Origin: an uncultured Opitutaceae bacterium
GTDB taxonomy: Bacteria; Verrucomicrobiota; Verrucomicrobiia; Opitutales; Opitutaceae
DNA: 64,000 nt
Assembly (NCBI GenBank): GCA_951813085.1
Contig: OX638348.1
Location: forward strand, 627,627 to 691,626
Reading direction: 5' to 3'
In this document: one piece after another, positions 20,612 to 58,614 of the stretch
Layout: each line of letters starts with the position of its first letter
Position numbering within the stretch: position 1 is the stretch's first letter
Made by a program: the position numbers and the translations under genes
Notes under the pieces: model-generated
Told to the model about the DNA's origin: nothing
Seen by the model: the letters and a program-made list of their open reading frames with translations, nothing else
Database searches by the model: none

Positions 20612-21913
20612 CTAATCAGTCGCTCGATAGTATCCACCCAATTCCGATGCCAGATAAGCGAATGTAACATAGGCAGCGGCGCTTTGATTGATCCGTTCAG
20701 GCTCGATTTTGTCTATCGTATCGTTGGCTGTGTGGTGGAGGTCGAAATAATCGTCCGTAAACATGTCGAGTCCAACAATGGGAACGCCAGCGTTGCTCAT
20801 GGGGACGATATCCGGTCCTCCTCGGGACTTTGCTCTTCCAGGCTGAACCCCCAGCTTGGATAGGGCTGATCGGATTGTGGACAAGGTAGGTTCGAGTGGA
20901 TTGCCCACGCCAATATCGATCGTATGAACTGGGCCTTGGCCGGCATCCGCTTCGACCGCGATGATGTGGCGAGCCAATTCGTTCCGGTTGTTTTCGACGT
21001 AGAAGTTCCCGCCATAGATTCCAATTTCCTCCGCTCCAAAAAGGACGACGCGAATTGTTCGCTTTGGACGTTCGGGCAAGTCGAGGATTAGCTTCGAGGC
21101 CGTCATAACAATGCCGACGCCCGCTCCATCATCGATCGCTCCAGTCCCCAGGTCCCAAGAGTCAATGTGGGCCCCCAGCAAGACGATTTCATCGGGGCGT
21201 TCACTGCCTGAGATTTCAGCGATAAGGTTTTGGCTAGTTACGGTTCCAAGCTGTTTTGGTGTCAGGACGATTCGAATACGTATTGAATCCGTTCGGGTAG
21301 CAAGACGATCAAGCTGTTGGGCATCCGGTACGGATAGGGCTGCGGCGGGTATGCGTGGAACGCCATCCTAGTATCGAGTTCCACCCGTGTGCGCCATTCG
21401 ATCGCCGTCAGTTCCAGCGGACCTCATCAGGAAAGCGATCACGCCACGCTTGGCGGCTTCCGATGGGCCATTTCCGCGTATCGGTCCTGAGATGCGTCCA
21501 TATTCGCCAATTCCCATTGCCTGCGCGACCACTGCGATTTTTCCGCTCAAGGATCCTTCTGGTTGATCGAGGAGCGCCTGTATTGTGGGGAATAGAGCGA
21601 TCTCCGCTTCAATTCCTTCTGGTGGAGTAGCGACGCTGCCGCCCAAGGCCGTTATGACGAGGCCTTGCGGGGAGGGTAGAGTAATCTCGGCGGTTTCCAG
21701 GCCGCGCTCCCAACCGCGGTCGACGGGGAAAGATTCGGTCCAGATTTTATCGAATCCGTATTCCTCGAATCGCTTAGCTGCCCATTCCACCGCCTGCTTC
21801 TCGCTTTCGGAACCGAAAAGGCGGGGTCCAATCTCGGTGGTGAGATCAGTTGCGATCTCCAGCGCGAGTCCCGTAGAAATGGCTTGCTCCGCGAGGCGCT
21901 CCGCGGTTTTCAA
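20612..21913 (-). pseudogene. M28-family Zn peptidase with PA domain, interrupted by an in-frame TAG
   Basis: ORFs 21368-21913 and 20612-21181 share one frame. The stop-free stretch between them encodes …DGVPRIPAAALSVP…LIAEISGSERPDEIVLLGAHIDSWDLGTGAIDDGAG…, a continuous M28 peptidase. A single TAG (plus-strand 'cta' at 21368-21370) is the only interruption. The reading frame upstream of 21913 also encodes a signal peptide (…SRLGSIAIALLSSTLSYS…) but has no canonical start codon. Confidence 0.7.
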
Positions 21914-23939: not shown

Positions 23940-24371
23940 GTGTCGCTGGACAAGGAGACCCTAGGGAAAGCTTTAAGGAAATGGGGCGGGGATAAGACCT
24001 CTCAGCTACTGGGCGCCCTTCTTAAGGAGCATGTAAAGAAGCAGCGCTTTATTCAATTCAAGCTTGCAGCCTGCGGGGCTCGAACCCATGCCTCCGAGCT
24101 GGGAAGAGGCGCGGTTCGCCGATTGGCCCAAGGCTGCGAATTGGTCGAGCCCTCGCGCCTCACGGGAGAATCCGCCAAGGTTCACACTCCTGCGGGGCGC
24201 CGTCGTTTTGTTCGCGCGGGTGCGGGCGGCTCGTTGTCCATCGCGGGGCCGAAGCCCTGCCTATCCTGCTATTTCACTACCACGCGCCCTGAAGCTTGCT
24301 GCAGCGCTTTGGCGAGCTGGGAAGAGGCAGCTAGCGTTGGTTACGCGCGCTGCCGGACATTTGGGGTTTAG
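23940..24371 (+). CDS. Small ribbon-helix-helix/VapB-like antitoxin-type N-terminus (first 45 aa or so); the rest of the ORF is probably non-coding GC-rich read-through
   Basis: N-terminus (V)SLDKETLGKALRKWGGDKTSQLLGALLKEHVKK has the pattern of small RHH/VapB-type antitoxins. Beyond about 24075 the ORF overlaps a tRNA-like remnant and reads like translated GC-rich non-coding DNA. Confidence 0.25.
   Translation: MSLDKETLGKALRKWGGDKTSQLLGALLKEHVKKQRFIQFKLAACGARTHASELGRGAVRRLAQGCELVEPSRLTGESAKVHTPAGRRRFVRAGAGGSLSIAGPKPCLSCYFTTTRPEACCSALASWEEAASVGYARCRTFGV
24065..24137 (-). tRNA. Degenerate tRNA-like remnant (73 nt; intact acceptor stem and T-arm, broken anticodon arm)
   Basis: On the minus strand there is a perfect 7-bp acceptor stem (GCAGCCT/AGGCTGC), discriminator A, and T-arm ATGGG-TTCGAGC-CCCGC. 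Total length is exactly 73 nt. The anticodon arm cannot form a canonical 5-bp stem with a 7-nt loop. Confidence 0.35.
24095..24110 (+). repeat. Direct repeat copy 1 (cgagctgggaagaggc) inside the tRNA-like remnant
   Basis: Identical 16-mer recurs at 24313-24328. Both copies are preceded by aagcttgc (24060-24067 and 24292-24299). The second copy looks like the first with the T-arm segment deleted. Confidence 0.5.
24313..24328 (+). repeat. Direct repeat copy 2 (partial duplicate of the tRNA-like remnant)
   Basis: See copy 1. Confidence 0.5.
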
Positions 24372-24602
24372 CGTAAATAGCGGATCCGCAAAGGTTTCAG
24401 TCTCAGCGATGAAGAAATATGGCCTTATAGAGGATGAGGGCAGCCGCGCCTCTCGCAAGATGCGGATATCTGAGCAGGGCATCGCATTATTGAAGCCATC
24501 AAATCCAGGAAGGCCCCGGCTTTTGGGGGAAGCGGCTTTGAAACCCGCAACCCATACCGAGCTATGGGAGCGGTTCGGCGGCGGGGGATCCGATGGCTAA
24601 GA

Positions 24603-25173
24603 CTACCTAGTTTTCGAACGGCGATTTACTGAAGCTGCCGCAAAGGCCCTAATCTCGCAATCTCGAGATACGATTTCATTTGCAAAGATAGGTGAAGGCG
24701 ATAGGGCCGAGGCGAATTCAGATGAAGAGAAAGAGCCGCCGCCCGTAGGTTCGCTTGCTCAATGGGCTTCTGGCGGCGTTGATCGGTTTGCAGAGCCTAA
24801 GAAAATTAAAGGCATGTCTGACGATGGCGAATGGGCCTTCGTTGATGGTAGCCCAACTGGGCTGCGTATGGCAGAAGCATCACTGGCGGAACCACCCCTT
24901 GCCAAAGGGGAGCAATCAAAGGCTCGAAGCCCGCCGCCCAATCCGTCTGCTCTCAAAAAAGAGCAAGCAAGCGGCGCGCAAGAAGCCCCTCCGGCAGAAG
25001 GCTACGCCAAGGAACGATTCACGACTGAGGAGGGTCCAGCGCTTTTGCGATGGCCCATGGAGCTTTCCGAAGATAGCGTGGAGGATATTGAATACTGGAT
25101 CGAGGGAGCGATGCGACGGGCGCGCCGAAAAGCAGGTTCGCCACCTGCAGGATCAGAATGGGCGAATGCTTAG
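24603..25173 (+). CDS. Hypothetical acidic, low-complexity protein (frame open upstream of the ORF-track M at 24814)
   Basis: Stop-free frame from about 24603 (…FERRFTEAAAKALISQSRDTISFAKIGEGDRAEANSDEEKEPPP…MELSEDSVEDIEYWIEGAMRRARRKAG…). No canonical start upstream of 24814. May be a frameshifted continuation of ORF 24064-24600. Confidence 0.3.
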
Positions 25174-25445
25174 CCAACCTCCCTGACGCCGCGACAGCAA
25201 TGCACGGCGTTCCCTGTTCGCATGTGGAGGCCGCTCGCGTCATTGAGGCGATGGACGGTAAGGAGGCTTGGAACGGCGAGGCTGGGGTGTTCGCGCTCTC
25301 AGGACACCCCCAGCCACAAATGCCTATGCGTGGGGCTACAAGGACGAGATTCAGTACATGGCTGCGCTAAATGTGCCGCCGATCCATTCAGCCCGTGAAG
25401 CCGTACAAGCAGCTATTGCCAGCGGAAATTTCTCGTGATCGACAT

Positions 25446-25529
25446 CGGGAGGGGGATTCGAACCCCCGGACGTATGGTACGTACGCCCGATTATCAATCG
25501 GATGCCTTAAGCCACTCAGCCATCCCTCC
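25446..25529 (-). tRNA. Type-II (Ser-like) tRNA pseudogene/remnant: anticodon loop reads GAU, acceptor stem 3' strand mismatched
   Basis: Minus strand reads GGAGGGA-TG-GCT-GAGTGGCTTAA-GGC-A-TCCGA-TTGATAA-TCGGG-[long variable arm CGT ACGTA CCA TACGT CC]-GGGGG-TTCGAAT-CCCCC-TCCCGAT. The D-arm and variable-arm layout matches tRNA-Ser. The anticodon is GAU rather than GCU/NGA. The last three acceptor pairs fail (3' strand …CCCGAT instead of …CCCTCC). It lies just inside the right IR. Confidence 0.45.
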
Positions 25530-25570
25530 ATAAGTTCTATCTTAGGAGAATCCGGCGTTTGGTCAATCAA

Positions 25571-37321: not shown

Positions 37322-39321
37322 ATGGCATCCCTTGTGATTATGGAATCCATGCCATTGAAGAAACGATTGATTGGGGTTACGTGGGTGATTGGCGTTGCCG
37401 CACTGACTGCTCATCTAAAGGCCATGAATTGGCTCCCCATTTCTGATGAAGATAAAGAATCTTCGGAATGCTACTATGAAAAGGATGCGGCAATAGAGGC
37501 GTTATACCAGTTTTCGGAGGGAGATTTTGGAGACGCAGATCTTAGCTATAGGCAATACTATACGCGTTTTAATGGTATACCGAAAGGAAGGAATCGAGGC
37601 TCTACGAAACGTTAGGTTCAAGCATTTTGGATCTGCTTCGGAAATTCGAGATGCGAAAGCGAGAATACACAAAACAACGTCTGGAAGCTTTGAATTCGAA
37701 GAAGGCCAAATCGTAGGGGCGGATGATGGGGAGGGATGGGATTTGCGTTTCGCGTTAGCTCCTTTGGAGACTGGAGATATAGTTGATTTGCAATACAGAA
37801 TTAGACGCAGAAGCATATATTCGAGCGAATATACTATTCTTCAAAAAGAGTGGCCCACTCGGAGGCGTTTAATCCGAATTAGGCCCCATGCATCCAGTCG
37901 CTATGACAATTTCTATGGACCACACTTTGCTCGATGGGAAACCTTGAATGCGGATCCAATTGAGATACAGGAAAAGGCCAATGGGTTCTACGAGGTTGTA
38001 GTTGGCAACATGAATACGTTTGCGGAGGAACCTTATAGTCTCCCCAAGGAAAAACGAGCGGCAGGTTTCTATTTCTATAGATCCTCTGATGACTCTCTCC
38101 CTGGAACGTACTGGATTCGAAGAGGTAAGGAAATATATCGAGAGACAAGAGCGCAGACTAAGCCGGGAGCTAACATAAGATCCGTTCTTGAGCAGCTGAT
38201 TACTGGCGGAATGGATCAAGACGAGAAATTGAAGGTACTGTATGACTATTGCGTTTCAGAATTGATAAACACGAGGCATGGCGATTTGTCCGCTCTTACT
38301 TCAGAGCAACGAAATTGGATAGATAGCGAAGGAACTGCGGAAAAAGTCTTGGAGCAGGGCTATGGTAGCCCAACTAATATTAACACGGTTTTTTTGCGCT
38401 CTAGTTCGGGCGGCTGGATTTGAAGCACGTAGAGTATTGTTGAATACAAGAATGGGTCCTCGGTTCACGGGTACAGTTGCGAGTTCCAGTTTCATGATGC
38501 CCAATCGATGCATTTCTGTACGTCTGGGTGATGAATGGCGCTTCTTTGATCCGGCTGACAAGTACTTGCCGATTGGGCAACTTTCATGGGAAGAGCAAGG
38601 TGTCGCTGCAATGATTACGAATCGGAATGGATTTGAGAGGACTTCGGTAAAAGTATCCTCATCGGAAGCTTCTAAGACGCTCAGAAAAGGGCGATTTACA
38701 TTGTCAAATAAGGGAATTCTATCGGGATCGGTTAGTTTGGAATATACTGGTCATTTTGGAGTTGATTTGAAGTGGATTCTTGACGACGAGTCGGTGAGCG
38801 GTCAGCATCGGTACGTCGAAGAGATGATTGCCAATTTCTGGCCGAATGCGGAAATATCATCCATTGTTGTTTCCAATGTAACGCATCCTTTTATGCCCTT
38901 GAAAATCTCCTTTGTTTTGGAGTCCTTATCAATCGGTCAAGTTGTGGGAGGTGATTTGACAATTCCTGTGAACCCTTTTGAGCTGTTAGCGACTTCGGAA
39001 CTGCCAGAAACGAAGCGCCATTCGGATTTGTTCTTCAAGTTCGCCAAGACAGAAGTAGATGACATTGAGATTACCTTGCCAAAAGATTTCGAATTAGGAA
39101 AAGCGCATGCACCAAGATCTTTTGAAATGGATGGAATATTTGAATACAAACCTCGATTGGGAATCAAACGAAGATCAAGTACTCTGGTGTATTCTCGTTC
39201 GTATTCACTTAAGGTTGTCGACTTTCCTAGCCGCCATTATGAGACGATTAGACAGTTGTTCCAGAACAAGACCCTTGAAGATAGACATAAAGTGTCGCTA
39301 AAACGGAAATCTAGCGAGTGA
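37322..39321 (+). pseudogene. Transglutaminase-like large secreted protein (DUF3857/TGase-core-like), split across three frames
   Basis: ORFs 37322-37615 (signal peptide), 37527-38423 and 38362-39321 are consecutive pieces in different frames. Removing one T from the T7 run at 38389-38395 joins …EQGYGSPTNINTVF to CALVRAAGFEARRVLL…, a TGase-core-like motif. Another shift lies near 37540-37600. Confidence 0.5.
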
Positions 39322-39542
39322 ACGAACGGAGTGTGAGCTTCTGAGGACGAGTCGCAGCCATAGCAGATGGTAATGCGAGGGTTGAAGAGGCAATCTTTCA
39401 GATGGAAGGTACAGGACCTCACGTCCACCAATGGTCCATTATGCCTCCGAAAGGCGAAATAACGTCGACCTTCATAGCTGGAACGCTTCTGTCAGCTTCA
39501 TTATCAAGATCTAGATTGTCGGAAAGGGAAGGGTGAACAGTA

Positions 39543-40373
39543 ATGGATCGGGAGGAGGTGTTCGAACGTTCGAGGAATCGGAAGGCAAGAGTGTCCAATA
39601 TTGGACCCAGGATCGAAATTTTTACTGTGAAGACGGTTTCCATTATCGCCATTGTTCTCTCAAGCACTGCATTGGCAGTGACGTTGTTCAATCGAGTCAC
39701 GGCCCCCGGTTCGGTATCAACGGAATCCGTGAGCGAATCGCTTCGATTGGAAGTGGAGGAATTGCGCGAGAGATTGGCGGCGCTGGAAAACTCGAACCCA
39801 ACAGTGGCGGAGCAGATTTTAGTTTCGCCAGAAATTGAGCAGAAAGTTGAGGAGTTGGCCGATAGCCAAATGGATCTAGCTGAACTTACGTTGAGCATCG
39901 ATTCACTGGGGGTTCTGGAAACGCAAGAGCGCGAGCTGGTAGAGGCCTACCAGGCTCTTCTCGATGAATCGCGGCCCGCAGGAGAGCGCGTTAAGCGAGC
40001 GCAATTGCTAAAGCGATACGGTCAATTTGATGAGCAAGCAGTGGAGTCGATGTGGAAACTGTTTTCGGAGGCAAAGAAACCCTATGATCAAGCGGCTGCG
40101 CTAACTGCCTTGAAAGGCCATATTTCAGTAGATCGTTTAGATGATGTAGTCGCTGCGCTCAATCAAGATACAGAAAATGGATACAAGAATGGCCGCCTTC
40201 GCTATTTCGGTGTCGAAGCGCTGCAACCCTTGCTCAATGAGCCGGCTGCCAAGGAGCAGTTGACGTTCATTGCCCAGAACGATCCTGAGCCGAAGATAGC
40301 CGCAAGAGCGGCTCGACTCGTTGGATTGCTCGTTCAGAAAGTAAAACGAACAACTTCGGACCGTCGAAAGTAG
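39543..40373 (+). CDS. Hypothetical membrane-anchored coiled-coil protein
   Basis: N-terminal TM helix (VKTVSIIAIVLSSTALAVTLF), coiled-coil region, C-terminal helical-repeat-like region. Confidence 0.4.
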   Translation: MDREEVFERSRNRKARVSNIGPRIEIFTVKTVSIIAIVLSSTALAVTLFNRVTAPGSVSTESVSESLRLEVEELRERLAALENSNPTVAEQILVSPEIEQKVEELADSQMDLAELTLSIDSLGVLETQERELVEAYQALLDESRPAGERVKRAQLLKRYGQFDEQAVESMWKLFSEAKKPYDQAAALTALKGHISVDRLDDVVAALNQDTENGYKNGRLRYFGVEALQPLLNEPAAKEQLTFIAQNDPEPKIAARAARLVGLLVQKVKRTTSDRRK

Positions 40374-40454
40374 GAGTTGGCCTTTTCGAAGATGTCAGGG
40401 TGGTCGCTCTTCCCAGCTTGCCCTGGGAGCCGGCCGACGGCTTAATCAATCGGT

Positions 40455-42608
40455 ATGTACCCCAAGATTGCGATCGCGAACCTTGCAGCGCTCGGCGCTT
40501 TGTTGGTTGGCTGCGGAGAAAGCCCCAAACCAGACGCGAAGGAGTATTCTACCTGGAGCAGCTATGCGGGCAGCGCCGATGCCGCCCAGTACTCAAGTCT
40601 GGATCAGATCAATCGCTCGAATGTGGGGCAACTGGAGGTCGCATGGTCCTATTCCACGGGTGACAATAACCGGTATTCGTTTGTGCCTCTCGTAGTGGAT
40701 GACCTGGCCTTCGTTCTGGCGAAAGACAATTCCATCGTGGCGATTGACGCCACAAGCGGTGAGGAAATCTGGATTCATAGCCCAGACGGAAAGGAAAAGG
40801 CATTAACCAATCGTGGCATCAACTATTGGGAAAGCGCCGATCGCACCGACCAGAGGCTCTTCTTCGCCAGCAATCATTTTCTTCGCGCTATCGATGCCCG
40901 AACGGGAAAGCCCATCGTCGATTTTGGTGATCAAGGGAGCGTGAGCTTGAAGGAAGGGCTGGGGCGGGACCCGAGTTCGTTCTCTCTCGTGCAATCGCAT
41001 TCGCCGGGCCGTGTATTCGAAAATACGCTTATCTTGGGATCGGCTACCAACGAAGGCTATGGGTCAGCTCCGGGTGACGTACGAGCGTACGACGTTCTAA
41101 CGGGCAAGATCGTCTGGTCATTCCATACCATTCCGCATCCAGGAGAATTTGGATACGATACCTGGCCAGAGGATGCTTGGAAAACAGTGGGGGGCGCCAA
41201 TGTCTGGTCTGAATTCACCGTGGATACGGAAAGAGGCATCGTCTATCTTCCCGTAGCCAGCGCCAAATACAACTTTTACGGAGCTGATCGCCAAGGGACC
41301 AATCTCTATAGCAATTGCCTGGTGGCTCTCGATGCCCGCAATGGAAAGCGGCTTTGGCATTTCCAATTCGTCCATCACGATATTTGGGACTACGATCCGG
41401 CGACCGCTCCAAAGCTATTGACTATCGAGCGCGAGGGCAAGCCGGTCGACGTAGTGGCCCAGGCCACGAAGCAAGGATTCCTATTCGTTTTCGACCGAGA
41501 AAGCGGCGAACCGATTTGGCCGATCGAGGAACGCCCCGTTCCGCAAGGCACTGAAATGCCACGCGAAACCTTGTGGCCGACCCAGCCCTTTCCCACGGCT
41601 CCTCCTCCATTCGCTCGACAGTCCTTTACGGTGGACGACCTGAATCCCCATATGAGCGAAGCGGGCCGGAAGCGGTTTTACGACGGCGTCAAGAATGCCC
41701 GGAACGAGGGTCTATTTACACCCCCGGGCCGGACGGATACGATCCAAATGTCGGGTAACAATGGCGGATCCAATTGGGGCGGCGGCGCCGTCGATCCAAG
41801 GAAGGGCGAGCTCTTCGTCGTCTCCAAAGATCATCCCGCCATCCTAAAAGCTGGTTCCCGATCAGGAGCAATCGGCCCCGCCTCCTAGCGAACGAGAGGG
41901 GCCCGGTCGCAGTATTTGTATGACATGCACTGTCAAAGCTGCCATTCGACCGAGCAGCAGCCAAACTCGCTGGCTGTGTCCTCATTGATCGGGGTTTCCA
42001 GCAAGCTCAGCGCTGCGCAGCTTCGAAACGTCATAGTAGCCGGTCAGGGACCCATGCCTGGATTTCCTTCGCTGCCTGAAGCAGATGTGGACCTGCTAGT
42101 AGATTTTCTAGCATCCCCTGTCCGTATCTAGAGTACGATGACTGATAGCAGTAGTTCGAGTGGCCTAGCCACGCGTTTCACGAGCGGCTTCGGACTAGTC
42201 CGCGCTAGCAATGGCCTTTCTCCGATCAAGCCTCCCTGGTCGACCCTCACCGCCTACGACTTGAATCGAGGAACTATCAAGTGGCAGATCCCTCTCGGAG
42301 ATGTTCCCCACTTGGCAGCTCAGGGAATAAAAGGAACCGGATCGTCCATGCCTAAGGTGGGGCCGGTCGCAACTGCGGGCGGCTTGATCTTCGCCGGGAC
42401 CCGAGACAAGAAAGTCCGGGCTTTCGATGTCGATAGTGGAGAGATTTTATGGGAAAGCGAAGTCTCGGCTGCTTTGGAAGGGATCCCCGCGGTCTACGAA
42501 GTGGACGGACGCCAGTATATCCTCTTCTGCGCCTCCGCTCAGGCAGGACTCACGAACGACACCGCCGAAACGATCAAGGGTCAATACGTCGCATTCGCGC
42601 TGCCTTAG
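40455..42608 (+). pseudogene. PQQ-dependent dehydrogenase (beta-propeller) with an internal cytochrome c domain; two in-frame TAG codons
   Basis: ORFs 40455-41888, 41916-42131 and 42138-42608 are all in one frame, separated only by TAG at 41886-41888 and 42129-42131. The lipoprotein signal (LVGCGE) and PQQ propeller blades sit in parts 1 and 3. The CxxCH haem motif (MHCQSCHS) is in part 2. Parts 2 and 3 alone lack signal peptides. Confidence 0.7.
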
Positions 42609-42654
42609 ATTCTCGATATCGAAATCGTGTTGCTACTGCGTAGTACTGCAAAGA

Positions 42655-43626
42655 CTACGGTTCCAACACGATGGCGCCGCACCGGCGTTCGGACTCTACT
42701 AACGCATGAGCGGTAGCAGCGTGTTCGAAGGGCAGCGTCTGGTCGACGATTGGTTTGATCTGGCCTTCTTCGATCAAGGAGCGCAGCTCATCTAAGTCTT
42801 GCATCGTTTCGCCTGCAAAGGTGGAAAGAGCTATCTTGTTGTCAGGCATTCGAAGCAATCGCGTCCTTAGCAGATCTGAAAATCGAGGGTTTCCCACAAG
42901 ATACCGTCCGCCATTATCCAGATTATTCATACACGTTTCGAACGATGCACCAGGAACCATATTGAAGATAAGGTCGTAGCGGTTCCCTTCATCTCCAAAC
43001 GCAATTTTCTCATAGTCGATAAAGTGGTCGGCCCCTGCGTGGCGTATTACGTCCTCCTTCTCTGACTTGTCGACGGCGGTGATTTCCGCCCCGCGGGCCT
43101 TGGCGATCTGGATCGCGAACAAGCCAATGCTTCCCCCTCCGCCATTAATCAAGACGCGATCTCCGTTGGAAACCTGACCCAGATTCAAGAAGTGCAGCGC
43201 GTTCAGCCCGCCTAGAAGCGCTGAAGCCGCTTCTGAATAATCAGAGCCTTCAGGCATTTTGCCTATCGTGAATGATTCGGGATAGGTAGCGTATTCTGCA
43301 TAGGCTCTCATCCGGAGCTGGCCGCAGCCAAATACTCTGTCGCCTATCGAAAATCGAGTGACATTCTTCCCGATCGCTACAATCTCTCCCGCAAAGTAGC
43401 TACCCAAAACTCGATTTCTAGGCTTTCTAATTCCCAGATATAAACGCAACGGCAGGGCGAACCATTTCACTGGAAATCGAAAGCTCCGCATTTCGCAATC
43501 CGCCTTCGTCGCTTCGACCGCGCGTATTCGAATGAGCGCTTCATTGCCTCTGGGACGCGGGGCCTCCAGTTCCTCGACCTTCAGGACTTCAGGGCCGCCG
43601 TAGTTGTCGTAGACGATTGATTTCAT
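42655..43626 (-). CDS. Zinc-type/MDR-family NAD(P)-dependent alcohol dehydrogenase or quinone oxidoreductase
   Basis: MDR fold with nucleotide-binding GGGGSIGLFAIQIAKARGA. 323 aa. Confidence 0.8.
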   Translation of the reverse strand: MKSIVYDNYGGPEVLKVEELEAPRPRGNEALIRIRAVEATKADCEMRSFRFPVKWFALPLRLYLGIRKPRNRVLGSYFAGEIVAIGKNVTRFSIGDRVFGCGQLRMRAYAEYATYPESFTIGKMPEGSDYSEAASALLGGLNALHFLNLGQVSNGDRVLINGGGGSIGLFAIQIAKARGAEITAVDKSEKEDVIRHAGADHFIDYEKIAFGDEGNRYDLIFNMVPGASFETCMNNLDNGGRYLVGNPRFSDLLRTRLLRMPDNKIALSTFAGETMQDLDELRSLIEEGQIKPIVDQTLPFEHAATAHALVESERRCGAIVLEP

Positions 43627-43637
43627 ATTTCTAGTCG

Positions 43638-43697
43638 ATTGCGCAGTACTACACCGTTCAGTTTACTTTACAATAATAAAATTGCACTACTCGGTGT
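43638..43697. promoter_or_regulatory. Candidate operator/divergent promoter region for the tetR–MDR dehydrogenase pair
   Basis: Inverted repeat actacaccg (43651-43659) and cggtgtagt (43689-43697) flank an AT-rich spacer. The 10-mer gcagtactac (43638-43647) is the reverse complement of gtagtactgc at 42632-42641, on the far side of the dehydrogenase gene. Confidence 0.3.
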
Positions 43698-43700
43698 AGT

Positions 43701-44339
43701 GTGCATGTTAAGGCGCCTATGAGTGAGGCGACCCATCAGACCGCCAAGGCAGCCAAGCGATCGGCGAAACGCGATTCCATTGTAGAGGGAGCCGTCAAGG
43801 CATTCGAGCTAGGGGGGTACGAAGGGGCCTCTATGGATCGCGTCGCAGAGCTTGCTGGGGCCTCGAAGCGTACGGTCTATAATTATTTCCCGAGCAAGGA
43901 AGCGCTTTTGATCGCGGTGATATCGGATTTGGTCGAAGGCCAGGCTGCTCTTAAGAGAATAAAATTCGATCCTCAAAAAAGCGTTTCGCAGCAGCTTTCA
44001 AAATTTATTGAAGCAGAGTTCTATGTCATGAATGACCCGACTCGCCTTTCCTTGGCCCGCGTGCTTACGTCTATTTTCGCCCGCAATCCGGAGCTGGCTG
44101 CAAAGGCCTGTCAAGGCATGGATCCGCCTCATGGACCCTTTATCGAGTGGTTGAATGCGGCCAATGAAGAAGGTGTTCTGAACGTTCCCGACGTCGCTTT
44201 GGCGGCAAAAGTATTTTATGGAATGATCGAGGGGCTTTTCAATTATCCCGCGCTGTTTCAAGCGACTCCTACCAAGAAGGAAATGGCGTCATTGAAGAAT
44301 GAGGTCATAGCGTTCATTCTTAGCCGCTATCAGGGGTAG
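43701..44339 (+). CDS. TetR/AcrR-family transcriptional regulator
   Basis: N-terminal TetR HTH (…GYEGASMDRVAELAGASKRTVYNYFPSKEALL…). Divergent from the MDR dehydrogenase gene. The start is probably the ATG of MSEATHQ (about 43728). Confidence 0.8.
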   Translation: MHVKAPMSEATHQTAKAAKRSAKRDSIVEGAVKAFELGGYEGASMDRVAELAGASKRTVYNYFPSKEALLIAVISDLVEGQAALKRIKFDPQKSVSQQLSKFIEAEFYVMNDPTRLSLARVLTSIFARNPELAAKACQGMDPPHGPFIEWLNAANEEGVLNVPDVALAAKVFYGMIEGLFNYPALFQATPTKKEMASLKNEVIAFILSRYQG

Positions 44340-47418: not shown

Positions 47419-47429
47419 AGCACTCGTGA

Positions 47430-48677
47430 TCAACCGCTAACGCGCTCCGTTCCTTTTAGAACTTCCTTCGTATCCACGATTCCAACACCTGGGCCTTTGG
47501 GAATGGTAAGGGACCCGTCTTCTATACGGAGGGGCGGATCGAACCAGTCGCTGTAGTTTTCAATGTTTCGCTTGTACTCTTGCCAGCCTCCTATGTCCGG
47601 CGTACGAGATGCGAAATGTAGCATGTAGATGAATCCGAATCCGCCGGATATGTGCACGGTCGTGGGGATGTTGAGCAGCTCGGCCATGCGGGATACGCGA
47701 ATCGAGCGGATTAGCCCTCCGTAGTAGTGAAGGTCAGGCTGGACGATGTCGACGGCCCGATTTTCGATGGCCCATTTGAAGCGCCATTGGCTGTATTCCT
47801 GTTCGCCGCCTGCGACCGGAATCTCTAAGGTATCCGTAACCTGGCGGGTATCCTCCAAGCGGTCAAGGGGGCAAGGCTCTTCGAAATAGACGGCGCCGAT
47901 GTCTTCCAGCATTCGCCCTACATCGATCGCTTGGAGGGGATCGTAGGAACTGTTCGAATCGGCGTGGATCGCCATGTCGTCGCCCAGCTCCTGGCGCGAC
48001 AACTTTATTAATTTGGGTGTACGTCCAAGGGAAGCGTCTTCGTTTCGACTCATGCGCCCACCGACTCGATATTTGATGGCTTTGGCCCCCGTCTCGTCGA
48101 TCAGGCCGCGAAGATAGTCGATCTCTTCCTCGGGAGTGGAGTCCCGCCGTCCGCTCGCGACGTAGAAAGGGATCTTCTTGCGGATGACGCCGCCCAGCAA
48201 ATCGCCGATAGACCTTCCGGCAACCCGCCCGAGCAGATCCAGGATCGCGAATTCGATCCAGGCGACGGGGCTCCAAAATGCGAGTCCTTGCAGCTTGTAG
48301 TTGCTCCCCCACCGGTACAGGCCCCAAAGATGGTCTTCGAGCTGTCGGGCATCCTTCCCGATAAAGTAAGGAGCCACGCGTTGCAGGAAGATCGGAGCCA
48401 GGTACTTGGCTCGGTTGTTGTCGAGCGATATACCCTCAGCGCCGTCTTTCGAGCGTACGCGAACGTAGTGCTGGTTTCCCTTTCGCAATAGATCGACCGA
48501 CTCGATGATAACCGGATCTTTCAAGCTTCCCAGTTCGAGGACCGGCTGAGCCGCTGCCTTGTCCAAGTGATAGCTTACGTCGCGACGCTCCTGGCCAATG
48601 AGCGATGCAGCGCTAGCGGCGGCAAGCGCTCCGAGACCGGCGGTCTTGCCCAGGAAATCACGTCGAGTAAGCGCCAT
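47430..48677 (-). CDS. Enolase-superfamily (mandelate racemase/muconate-lactonizing) sugar-acid dehydratase-like enzyme, Tat-exported
   Basis: Tat signal (MALTRRDFLGKTAGLGALAAASAAS) and an MR/MLE-type barrel region (…IHADSNSSYD…VYFEEP…VAGGEQEY…). Confidence 0.8.
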   Translation of the reverse strand: MALTRRDFLGKTAGLGALAAASAASLIGQERRDVSYHLDKAAAQPVLELGSLKDPVIIESVDLLRKGNQHYVRVRSKDGAEGISLDNNRAKYLAPIFLQRVAPYFIGKDARQLEDHLWGLYRWGSNYKLQGLAFWSPVAWIEFAILDLLGRVAGRSIGDLLGGVIRKKIPFYVASGRRDSTPEEEIDYLRGLIDETGAKAIKYRVGGRMSRNEDASLGRTPKLIKLSRQELGDDMAIHADSNSSYDPLQAIDVGRMLEDIGAVYFEEPCPLDRLEDTRQVTDTLEIPVAGGEQEYSQWRFKWAIENRAVDIVQPDLHYYGGLIRSIRVSRMAELLNIPTTVHISGGFGFIYMLHFASRTPDIGGWQEYKRNIENYSDWFDPPLRIEDGSLTIPKGPGVGIVDTKEVLKGTERVSG

Positions 48678-48710: not shown

Positions 48711-48760
48711 AGGGTGAAGGGGAGGGTTGAAGAGTGAGGAGTGAGTGGTGAAGAGTGAAA
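48711..48760. repeat. Tandem heptamer repeat (RGTGARG)x6-7, 35-85 nt upstream of the enolase-superfamily gene start
   Basis: gggtgaag gggaggg ttgaag agtgagg agtgagt ggtgaag agtgaaa. On the coding (minus) strand it reads as TTCACTC/CTCACTC repeats. Confidence 0.5.
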
Positions 48761-48987
48761 CTTGAACCTGTATTCGATTTCATGTAACAAATTCTGTAGC
48801 ATTGATCGTGAGATCAGCGATCCGTCATCTAGCGCTGCTATAAAGGTTGTTCAGGATCGGAATTTAGTTTTGTTACTGGTGAAGGAAGCGTACGACGAAC
48901 GAGACGCGCATCCGTCTTATCGGTCGAATTGCGTCGAGGGCTCATCTGAGGCTTGCGATTCTCTCGAGGGCTCGTAGAAAGTTTCAT

Positions 48988-50510: not shown

Positions 50511-51849
50511 CTACCCATTTCCATAGTGCCAGCCCCAGCCCTTGGGGACTTGGCCTCCGCCTTTGTAGTCGGTGCTGGGCTTGAGAGGTGGCAGCGTCGC
50601 GACGAAGGCGTCGTAGCGCTGCCGTAGTTGATTCACCACTTCAGGATGCTGTTGCGCGCGATCTTTTGATTCCTTGGGATCCTTCTTGAGATCGAAAAGT
50701 TTCCAGCCGTCTGGATATTTTATCAGGCGCCAGTCTTTCCATCGAACTGCGTATAGGTTTCGCCGTGGCGCGTCGGTGGGATCGGCATTGTGCCAAAAGA
50801 TGTATTCGTGAGCATCGCCATTCTTATCGCCCTAAAGAAAGGGCAATAGGTTTACGCTGTCGCAGCGAGGGGGGCAAGGGCTTGCCAATGGCGGCTGCCA
50901 TAGTGGCGTAGAAATCGATGGTAGCGGTTTTGCCTTCATAGGTGATGCCGGCGGGAATGGCTTTGGGCCAGGTGATGATGGTAGGCGTATGCACCCAGTC
51001 CTCCTGCTGCGTGTCTTTCCCTTTTCCTCCGCGATAGGGTTCGGAGCTACCGCCGTGAGCCCGATTCGCCCCGTTGTCGCCCGTTAAGAAGATAAGCGTG
51101 TCGTTCTCAAGCTCGTGCGTCTCTAACGACTTGAGCAATTTGCCCACAGCGTCGTCGACCGCTACGACAGCGCCCTCGTAGGCAGTGCCATCGCCTCCGG
51201 GAATTCGGTCTCGATAGTGTTGGGGAGTATTCTTGACGTTTGAGTGAACGGCGAACGGCGAGAAATATAGAAAGAAGGGCTTCTCTGCGTTACGCTCGAC
51301 GAATTCGGCCATGTAGTCGCCATCGAGGTCCGTAAGGTAAACATAGCTGCCATCTTCCCGCTCGCGGTCATACTGTTGTCCAAGGGCGTTTTTGGCCACT
51401 TCCATGAAGCCGCGTTCATGGGGGCCTTGTCCCACTGCCCCTATATCCCACTTGCCAATTTGTCCGGTGGTGTAGCCTGCATCCCGCATGAATTCACCCA
51501 TAGTGGGGTGGTCTTCCGGGATGGGCAGGCCGCGGGCCATGCCAGACTTTCCGTACCGTTGCGCGTACATTCCGGTCATGAGACTGCAACGGCTGGGAGA
51601 GCAGGGCGGATTGGTGATGTAGGACATCGTGCACTTAGCTCCTCGTGCCGCGAGCGAATCGATGTGTGGCGTGGGAATGCGCAGATGACCAAAGCATCCA
51701 AGGTCGCCGACACCAAGATCATCGATAAAGAGAATGACCATGTTGGGTCGCTTGCGACCGCTTTCCTGAGCGAAATTGAATTCAGGAACGAGGCTCGTAG
51801 CGATAGCTCCGGCCGTAGCGGTCTTGATAAAGTGGCGTCTGTGGTTCAT
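50511..51849 (-). pseudogene. Sulfatase (arylsulfatase-like) with a frameshift in a G6/C6 run plus an in-frame TAG
   Basis: Main ORF 50824-51849 carries the sulfatase N-terminal signature (…CSPSRCSLMTGMY…). The conserved C-terminus (…GDKNGDAHEYIFWHNADP…KDWRLIKYPDGWKLFDLKKDP…) continues in the +1 frame down to a TAG at 50511-50513. The shift coincides with gggggg at 50869-50874. The continuation contains a TAG (plus 'cta' 50832-50834) within …DSVNLLPFL*GDKNGD…. Confidence 0.7.
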
Positions 51850-57236: not shown

Positions 57237-58614
57237 CTATTCTTTCAGGTTTCTGGAGCTGCGGAGATCGGACTCCATTTCGGATTGCTGACCCTTGTCG
57301 CCTGTTCGTTCCATCCACGCCAGAAGGGCGGCCCGGAGCTGAGCCTTGATATCGGCGAATTCTGGATTGTCGGCGAGGTTGTTCCATTCGTGGTAGTCCT
57401 CGTTGATCGCGTAGAGCTCTTCGCCCGCTCGAAAGTGGTAGCGTCGCACTTTCTCGGCTGCGTCGGGATCGTGCTGGGCCTTTCGTTTCCAAGAATTGAA
57501 TACCTGCGCCTCGCCCCATCGCGTGTCTTCGGGAATGGTAACCACGTTTTCGAATTTCACCTCTGGCGTGAAGTTCCAGATGTATTTGAATCTCAAGGAT
57601 CTGGCGGACCGGATTCCAAAATGGTCGGGCGCGTTTATGATCCCTCGGGTCGTCATCTGCGAGAAGACGTATTCCTTATGGTTATCGGCTTTACCGGTCA
57701 GCAAAGGATAAGCTTTGCCCGTCTAGATTGGGCGCAGGCTTGCCCCCGGCGGCCTCTACGAAAGTGGGGACAACGTCCGAGTATTCGATCAGGGCGTCGC
57801 AAACGGATCCGGGTTCGATCTTTCCAGGCCATCGGACGATGAAGCCTGTGTGGAGGCCTGCGTCGTACAGCGTCCACTTGGCGAAAGGAAGGCTTGAGCC
57901 TTGCTCGGTTGTCGCGATGAAGAGCGTATTGTCCGCGTATCCATATTTTGATATGAGATCGAGCGTTTGCCCTACCTGGCCATCGAAATAGGTGGTTTCG
58001 GCGAGGTAGCGGACCATGGCGTCTCGGGTCTCAGGCGTGTCGACGAATGTGTAAGGGAGCTGAACTTCGTCCACGTCGTATTGGCTGGGATCGCCTTTGT
58101 CCCAAGGAGCATGCGGCTCGTTCGAAGTCACGAAGAGGCAGAAGGGAGCGTCCTCTTGCTGGCAGGACTGGATAAAGGATTCGATGGCCTTGAAATCGGG
58201 ACTGTTGCCCTTGTTCAGGTATTCGAAGGGAAAGACGGATTGAGGCTTGATGTGGGTCTTTCCGCTGAGGGCGATCCGATATCCCAATGGCTTCAAGTAA
58301 TGGACGATCGATTGCGTGCCTGGCTCGGCGAAGGTGTGGTTAGGATAGGCGCCGGATTTGAAGGGTGACAGGCCCGTGTAAATATTGTGGCGAGTGGGGG
58401 AGCAGGTGGGAGATGACTGGAAGCAATTGGTAAAGCGCATGCCTTCCTCGGCGAGCGCGTCCATGTGAGGGGTGATCGCTTGGCCGCCGTAGCAGCCGAC
58501 GTCGAAGTAGCTTAGATCGTCCGCGAGGACGAAAACGAAATTGGGCTTATCGCTTGCGCTCGCCCAGATAGAAAGCGCGCCGAAGAGTAGGGGGATAAGA
58601 AGGAAATGTCTCAT
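57237..58614 (-). pseudogene. Sulfatase split by a frameshift
   Basis: ORF 57691-58614 has the sulfatase N-terminus with signal peptide (…CSPTRHNIYTGL…). ORF 57237-57704 in another frame has the conserved C-terminus (…YPLLTGKADNHKEYVFSQ…). The junction is at about 57708-57722 (…DGQSLS | YPLLTGK…). Confidence 0.7.

Follow-up and report, generated by a model that had tools for sequence, protein, structure and literature searches.

Three consecutive, same-frame open reading frames (ORFs) that resemble parts of a PQQ dehydrogenase, separated by two TAG codons at the edges of a cytochrome c module, raise the question of whether such stops belong to the way the enzyme is made or are damage to its gene. 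The original prediction for the 64,000-nucleotide stretch of DNA analyzed here (the window) favored conditional read-through or an inserted element whose junctions carry TAG. Comparison with intact relatives indicates instead that the three ORFs are, very probably, one ordinary PQQ/haem-c dehydrogenase gene broken by three small lesions, with the TAG codons as damage.

Architecture of the dehydrogenase and its relatives

The three ORFs span positions 40455-41888 (477 aa), 41916-42131 (71 aa) and 42138-42608 (156 aa) in one shared frame and are separated by TAG at 41886-41888 and 42129-42131. In Pfam searches, profile positions 1-447 of PF01011 fall on the first piece (503 bits, E = 1.6e-150) and positions 480-595 on the third (97 bits, E = 1.7e-27), the two together covering the whole propeller profile above the cut-off of 26.7 bits, and the second piece is a Cytochrome_CBB3/Cytochrom_C match (PF13442, E = 5e-11; PF00034, E = 1e-5). 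The orthologue on L088, a syntenic metagenome contig (about 96.7% nucleotide identity) that matches window positions 39987-61865 at 95.7-96.8%, is one intact 716-aa ORF. The Pfam split and this intact frame bear out the proposal that the three ORFs are fragments of a single PQQ beta-propeller dehydrogenase, which is laid out as follows:

40455..42608, + strand: whole disrupted gene for a lipoprotein-type PQQ 8-bladed propeller dehydrogenase with an internal mono-haem cytochrome c, delimited by the 716-aa L088 orthologue
40455..40514, + strand: signal peptide with a lipobox-like LLVGC whose Cys is codon 20, from the translation (LLGGC in L088)
40554..41849, + strand: first part of the propeller, roughly the first six blades, with the invariant HHDIWDYD (PF01011 positions 1-447)
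41907..42116, + strand: cytochrome c module (PF13442 and PF00034; helical in the model of the relative P0001)
42132..42605, + strand: second part of the propeller, roughly the last two blades (PF01011 positions 480-595)
42606..42608, + strand: true terminator, TAG (homologues stop at the same ...FALP position)

The c-type haem module, with CxxCH at 41931-41945 and a probable axial Met, within GPMPGF, at 42054-42056, is inserted between PF01011 positions ~447 and ~480, and its two Cys, His and Met are invariant across the alignments. HHDIWDYD is likewise invariant in the homologue alignments, and a two-Asp lanthanide motif mentioned in a preprint (bioRxiv 10.64898/2026.07.10.737718) may map onto the dehydrogenase. 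An AlphaFold model of P0001 (mean pLDDT 80) has propeller strands that end at residue 529, cytochrome c helices at 541-613 and strands that resume at 635; by strand count in this model, about six of the eight blades would precede the insert. Alignment of sequences with and without the insert reveals that linker, cytochrome c and linker (~95 aa) fill one loop (...HPAILKLVPD[insert]RFTSGFG...), and both the alignment with insert-less paralogues and the P0001 model place the two TAG codons within two ~20-aa linkers that flank the haem module. The original claims that the cytochrome c lies inside the propeller, in a loop rather than at the C-terminus, and that a TAG stands at each boundary of the module therefore hold.

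A protein search with the read-through protein scored at least 8000 candidates, every one at E <= 0.001, and the 120 matches listed are nearly all single proteins of 690-780 aa with PF01011 and PF13442, the closest among them (P0001-P0004) sharing 77-82% identity with the query. The L088 orthologue (96.6% identity) was reached via a search with a sulfatase from the window and is not among the protein-search matches listed, the best of which stands at 82%. A genome scan found relatives at no fewer than 598 loci in Acidobacteriota, Bacteroidota, Verrucomicrobiota and other phyla; among the best 80 of these at least 598 loci, an internal CxxCH is present in 66 and the module-less sister form in 14, and the frame is open and uninterrupted in 63 of the 66 haem-bearing loci, all from other genomes. 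The internal position of the module, which had been considered unusual, is thus the standard layout of a very large family, with thousands of single proteins of 700-750 aa that share it. Homologues with the cytochrome c as a separate downstream gene, named at the outset as the observation that would count against a single gene, were not found, cytochrome c and propeller being in one protein in nearly all of the listed relatives, and comparison of the junction codons in homologues with the internal cytochrome c shows sense codons there and none of the TAGs.

The clade to which these proteins belong (P0001, P0011, P0060 and the L088 orthologue, for example) shares with the window gene the order PF01011, PF13442, PF01011, as well as the insertion site, CxxCH, Met and HHDIWDYD; the window gene is 62-82% identical to the listed clade proteins and 96.6% identical to the L088 orthologue. 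The window copy is broken by two insertions and one nonsense codon, whereas its close clade relatives are all single ORFs, and the L088 orthologue, unlike the window copy, is one unbroken ORF that begins with an export signal. As written, the window gene is a disrupted member of the internal-cytochrome-c quinohaemoprotein clade. Clade members are labeled in the sources as 'quinoprotein glucose dehydrogenase' or 'pyrroloquinoline quinone-dependent dehydrogenase'.

The best PDB sequence and fold matches are the type II quinohaemoprotein alcohol dehydrogenases (ADH IIB/IIG; 1KB0, 1KV9, 1YIQ) and AdhA of membrane-bound ADH (8GY2), which, like the clade, carry both a PQQ 8-bladed propeller and a c-type haem domain on a single periplasmic chain. 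Their haem domain is C-terminal, however, whereas that of the window gene lies within a propeller loop and no cytochrome c follows its complete propeller; identity is ~20%, TM ~0.55-0.64, and the sequence matches are limited to the propeller. Closer in sequence are the insert-less sister paralogues (P0096, P0120; L036, L040, L043, L048), with propeller identity of up to ~70% and the same loop (...HPAILKLVPD...RYTSGFG) without the ~95-aa linker-cytochrome c-linker. No solved structure with the internal cytochrome c arrangement emerged from the PDB sequence and fold comparison, and no description of this architecture was found in the literature searched. The clade is very widespread and apparently has no solved structure or characterized member within the literature and databases searched, which makes it a modest research opportunity independent of the window.

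Three lesions in the two linkers

Over the dehydrogenase gene the window and L088 are 95.9% identical at the nucleotide level, and the only differences that bear on the frame are an additional A at 41846, an additional GG at 41898-41899 and a C-to-T substitution at 42129. Their consequences are the following:

41846, + strand: first lesion, an extra A (A3 to A4 run) and with it a +1 shift of frame; gap in L001, L005, L006, L007 and L088
41847..41899, + strand: out-of-frame stretch (52 nt) in the N-side linker; frame 0 reads AGSRSGAIGPAS, stop, RTRG, and the ancestral reading is LVPDQEQSAPPPSERE
41886..41888, + strand: first TAG, in the shifted frame only; ancestral CCT CCT AGC GAA (Pro-Pro-Ser-Glu), CCT CCT AAC GAA in L088
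41898..41899, + strand: second lesion, two extra G (GAGGCC to GAGGGGCC) that restore frame 0, their placement within the G run being arbitrary
42129..42131, + strand: third lesion and second TAG, where a Gln codon (CAG, as in L088) of the variable linker on the C side has become a stop

Deletion of 41846 and 41898-41899 in silico yields a 716-codon frame, 692/716 identical to L088, whose sole internal stop is codon 558. When four homologues are aligned with the window as DNA, every one of them shows gaps of 1 nt at 41846 and of 2 nt near 41903, and at the protein level the frame-0 peptide between ILK and QYLYD (AGSRSGAIGPAS, stop, RTRG) fits no homologue whereas that of the +1 frame (LVPDQEQSAPPPSERE) does. 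Pieces 1 and 2 appear to share a frame because the +1 and +2 insertions cancel; as the indels shift the window's frame at the first site, the first TAG is not an ancestral in-frame codon. The shifted stretch with the L088 base at 41888 would read TAA, a stop either way, so that the protein would not be restored even though the indels cancel. The original view of both TAGs as in-frame codons consequently fails for the first, which arises in the 41847-41899 out-of-frame stretch. At the second, more distant homologues have Ser or Pro. On the aligned sequences, the second TAG is a plain amber mutation and the first a by-product of the frameshift. More generally, same-frame ORFs separated by stops can mask a compensated indel pair, and the inter-domain peptide deserves to be checked against homologues.

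All three lesions lie in linkers and within 285 nt of each other, an arrangement with a probability of roughly 1e-3 to 1e-4 under uniform placement, although the cluster was chosen for its pattern and the genome carries many lesions. That the lesions all fall in the two least-constrained linkers and that the indels cancel speaks against damage, and is what would be expected if a full-length product were selected. We also considered a hidden frameshift at the second TAG, where the -1 frame reads SVSR like P0001; L088 uses the same frame as the window there (STMTDSSSSSGLA) and has CAG, and the idea was dropped.

In intact relatives, to judge from the family, the polypeptide would be exported to the periplasm and probably anchored by lipid (the window dehydrogenase is itself a putative lipoprotein by its sequence), and its 8-bladed propeller would bind PQQ and a metal and oxidize a sugar- or alcohol-type substrate. 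Electrons would then pass to the c-type haem of the ~75-aa cytochrome c module and onward to the respiratory chain; the module presumably sits, on two flexible linkers, in a loop that interrupts the propeller after some three-quarters of its length. The export signal is present in piece 1 only and pieces 2 and 3 lack a signal peptide, so that the sequence as written would yield only a truncated 477-aa exported fragment; the fragments are probably non-functional.

Other broken genes in the window

The pattern is not special to the PQQ gene. At least four other window genes are broken by frameshifts or TAGs, and with the PQQ gene included the 64 kb carry no fewer than 8 lesions, spread over 5 or more of ~47 genes. 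The others are:

21368..21370, - strand: in-frame TAG in an M28/carboxypeptidase-Q-like gene (21913..20612), whose homologues are single proteins of ~460 aa
38389..38395, + strand: frameshift in a T7 run of a transglutaminase-like gene (37527..39321); with one T removed, NTVFCALVRAAGFEAR
50832..50874, - strand: +1 insertion in a C run and in-frame TAG (50834..50832) in a sulfatase gene (51849..50511); the TAG is AAG (Lys) in L088
57700..57720, - strand: 2-nt deletion at 57708 relative to L088 and resulting frameshift in a second sulfatase gene (58614..57237); L088 has an intact 459-aa ORF

The column of the M28 TAG holds Gln, Thr, Ala, Glu or Arg in homologues, with Gln in the four closest, and a Transglut_core match is obtained for the transglutaminase-like sequence in its repaired form only. 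The insertion in the 51849..50511 sulfatase corresponds to G5 to G6 at 50869 on the + strand, and a search with the repaired sulfatase retrieved an intact 445-aa orthologue at 97% identity (P0241), whose metagenome contigs are syntenic with the window. Across the ~20 kb shared with L088 there are seven indels, three intergenic and four coding; each of the four coding indels disrupts a gene in the window, and the L088 genes are all intact.

Despite these lesions, the PQQ gene looks normally constrained: of the 204 columns with at least 97% conservation across 118 homologues it retains 203, the sole change being P433S, and intact homologues differ at 0-4 of these near-invariant columns. Relative to L088, dN/dS is 0.12 for the PQQ gene and 0.16 and 0.12 for the two sulfatases, against 0.07-0.17 for intact neighbors. 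Since dN/dS is not raised and constraint is normal, the lesions are either very young or not real. Ordinary bacterial gene disruption, with the CAG-to-TAG amber changes and small insertions in short mononucleotide runs known from pseudogenes or from residual consensus errors, matches the window in its lesion types, in that several genes of the region are affected and in that a close lineage is intact; the window gene departs from the ordinary picture in its unraised dN/dS and its retained conserved residues, and if the lesions are real the inactivation would be very young.

Whether real mutations inactivated the gene very recently or the consensus of the assembly contains errors that were left uncorrected is, in our estimate, close to an even bet. 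Of the five coding indels, four add bases to mononucleotide runs, the lesions are bunched within 40-285 nt, a gene load of ~10% would be extreme given the normal dN/dS, and the assembly is a closed single contig of 4,852,771 bp that we take to be long-read, all of which points to errors. Nonsense substitutions nevertheless make up three of the eight lesions, one lesion is a 2-nt deletion outside any repeat, and the same dispensable secreted catabolic genes are hit repeatedly while the largest genes are intact, as genuine mutation would have it. With lesions in about one in ten window genes, either the consensus is error-prone or the lineage is in very early gene decay, and the annotation of the 4.85-Mb genome should be used with care.

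Alternative readings of the stops

Full-length enzyme could also be made from the sequence as written if an amber suppressor tRNA, such as tRNA-Gln(CUA), or context-dependent read-through acted on the stops. Four TAGs lie in frame inside window genes, with no confirmed TAA or TGA; the PQQ TAG at 42129 stands for CAG (Gln) and the four homologues closest to the M28 gene have Gln where it has TAG; the TAGs are all at variable positions, and the remainder of each TAG-bearing protein is normally constrained. We consider this reading very unlikely all the same. TAG ends 25 of the 45 long window ORFs (23 of 43 once the two disputed stops are subtracted), TAG is also the genuine stop of the PQQ and M28 genes, at the positions where their homologues end, and an efficient suppressor would be very costly where TAG is the commonest true terminator. 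Furthermore, the first PQQ TAG depends on a frameshift and the sulfatase TAG stands for Lys, the same genes and their neighbors bear uncompensated frameshifts that read-through would not repair, the stops are missing from the 96%-identical L088 and from 63 of the 66 other haem-bearing loci, the +4 bases are inconsistent (C, A, G, G), and the sole tRNA-like gene in the window (25441-25530) has the anticodon GAU, leaving the window without a suppressor tRNA. RNA folds predicted 3' of each of the four in-frame TAGs and over the frameshift showed nothing notable (z of -1.3 to +1.2), Rfam returned no match over 39500-43700, and a search for a conserved slippery site or frame change, as in programmed frameshifting, found none, homologues and L088 reading straight through. 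Known UAG recoding systems (pyrrolysine, amber suppressors, phage codes with TAG as Gln) share with the window the presence of in-frame TAGs in several genes, two of them at Gln, but in the window TAG is the main terminator, the stops are not conserved, frameshifts are present, a suppressor tRNA is lacking and the DNA is a bacterial chromosome rather than phage. A combined scenario, in which the lesions are real and the lineage tolerates in-frame UAG by way of an amber suppressor such as tRNA-Gln(CUA), is similarly doubtful in the extreme; it would mean that some full-length product is still made from the TAG-bearing PQQ dehydrogenase, M28 peptidase and sulfatase genes, while TAG also serves as the genome's main terminator.

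More improbable still is that the cytochrome c module is a recently inserted mobile domain cassette with TAG at its junctions. A sister clade of close paralogues (P0096, P0120, L036 and others) indeed lacks the ~95-aa module at exactly this loop, and the module must therefore have been gained or lost at some point in the family's history; thousands of homologues from several phyla, however, have it in frame at this very site, and L088 has it, TAG-free, at 96% identity. The gene's divergence from L088 (95.9% identity) resembles that of the syntenic region (95.7-96.8%), no direct or inverted repeats were found at the module junctions, and three small lesions account for the TAGs base by base. 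With L088 intact, no repeats, no RNA structure and TAG as the commonest terminator, the stops at the module boundaries imply neither read-through nor an inserted element. The idea of three separate functional genes, a split enzyme whose pieces assemble after translation, has no better prospects than the cassette: each piece does have a possible start (ATG 40455, TTG 41916, ATG 42138), but pieces 2 and 3 carry no signal peptide, so that haem attachment and periplasmic assembly would probably fail, the TTG at 41916 lies within the module's first helix, piece 1 includes seventeen codons of out-of-frame junk, and none of the homologues, among the 120 listed proteins and the best 80 loci, is divided in this manner. 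The preferred reading, a single gene damaged at three points, takes one candidate for recoding or insertion off the list and carries little biological weight.

Of the window's three nonsense TAGs, two stand in place of a Gln codon or align with one, which fits a Gln amber suppressor and equally fits the commonest mutational route to TAG. A shared origin of the TAGs in a Dcm-type methylation motif (CCWGG to CTAGG) was considered and set aside: of the three sites only that of the M28 gene fits (CCAGG), neither the PQQ site (TCCAGAG) nor the AAG-to-TAG transversion in the sulfatase does, and CCWGG is not depleted. A cluster of CTAG at 42096-42205, examined as a possible signal, consists of Leu CTA followed by codons that start with G and is largely common to L088, and was therefore discounted. 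Finally, the adjacent AcrB and PhoD ORF pairs, which have a single TAG between their members and were considered as further read-through candidates, are separate complete genes.

Evolution of the cytochrome c module and the WDYD motif

Among homologues of the disrupted PQQ propeller dehydrogenase, a sister clade that shares up to ~70% propeller identity with it (proteins P0096 and P0120; genomic loci L032, L036, L040, L043 and L048, and others) is without the cytochrome c module at precisely the loop where the window protein carries it, so that the module has been cleanly gained or lost in the evolution of the family. The propeller carries the motif HHDIWDYD (window 41370-41395), of which the WDYD portion is invariant and present in all homologues. 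Two aspartates placed in this way have been described as the signature by which 8-bladed PQQ enzymes bind lanthanides (bioRxiv 10.64898/2026.07.10.737718). By this signature, which we map onto the window protein by inference, the internal-cytochrome-c PQQ clade may be lanthanide-dependent. In a Terriglobia MAG (MFD05513.bin.2.87; locus L038), the homologous PQQ/cytochrome c gene is likewise in fragments, with the longest open frame covering 46% of the match.

Additional gene lesions and differences from a close relative

Besides the PQQ gene, four more genes are broken within the same 64 kb:

21368-21370, minus strand: TAG in an M28 peptidase gene
38389-38395, plus strand: T7 frameshift in a transglutaminase-like gene
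50832-50874, minus strand: frameshift and TAG in a sulfatase gene
57700-57720, minus strand: frameshift in a second sulfatase gene

Both sulfatases are uninterrupted in L088, a syntenic metagenome contig 96.7% identical to the window. A further gene with an in-frame stop, a TAA in that case, may be represented by the following region, where the stretch downstream of the stop lacks an early start codon and neither part has a Pfam match:

24064-25173, plus strand: 178-aa ORF and same-frame open stretch of 190 codons, separated by TAA (24598-24600)

Gene content differs between the two relatives at window 42676-44339 and L088 14383-15541, with the window carrying as extras, directly after the PQQ gene, a 212-aa ORF and the following gene:

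42655-43626, minus strand: zinc-type alcohol dehydrogenase

Conversely, a metallo-beta-lactamase-fold gene of L088 is absent from the window at 47419-47453. A 13-nt indel also separates the two sequences within window 48715-48977, where a 69-aa ORF called in L088 is probably not a real gene, given its dN/dS of ~1 against the window.

Stop codon usage and an odd tRNA-like gene

Across the whole window, 45 long ORFs terminate in TAG (25), TAA (14) or TGA (6); TAG is thus the leading terminator and TGA is scarce, a pattern unusual for a bacterium of 53% G+C. Leu CTA codons are common in these ORFs and, because of their frequency, antisense TAGs are numerous. CTAG tetranucleotides cluster at 42096-42205 (6 in 110 nt, versus 1.6 per kb on average across the window), mostly where a Leu CTA precedes a codon beginning with G, and are largely common to L088.

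The window holds a single tRNA-like gene:

25441-25530, minus strand: tRNA-like gene, anticodon GAU (Ile)

With a length of ~87-90 nt, a long variable arm, two mismatched acceptor-stem pairs and an Rfam tRNA score of only 38.8 bits, the gene possibly encodes a degenerate tRNA or an unusual one.
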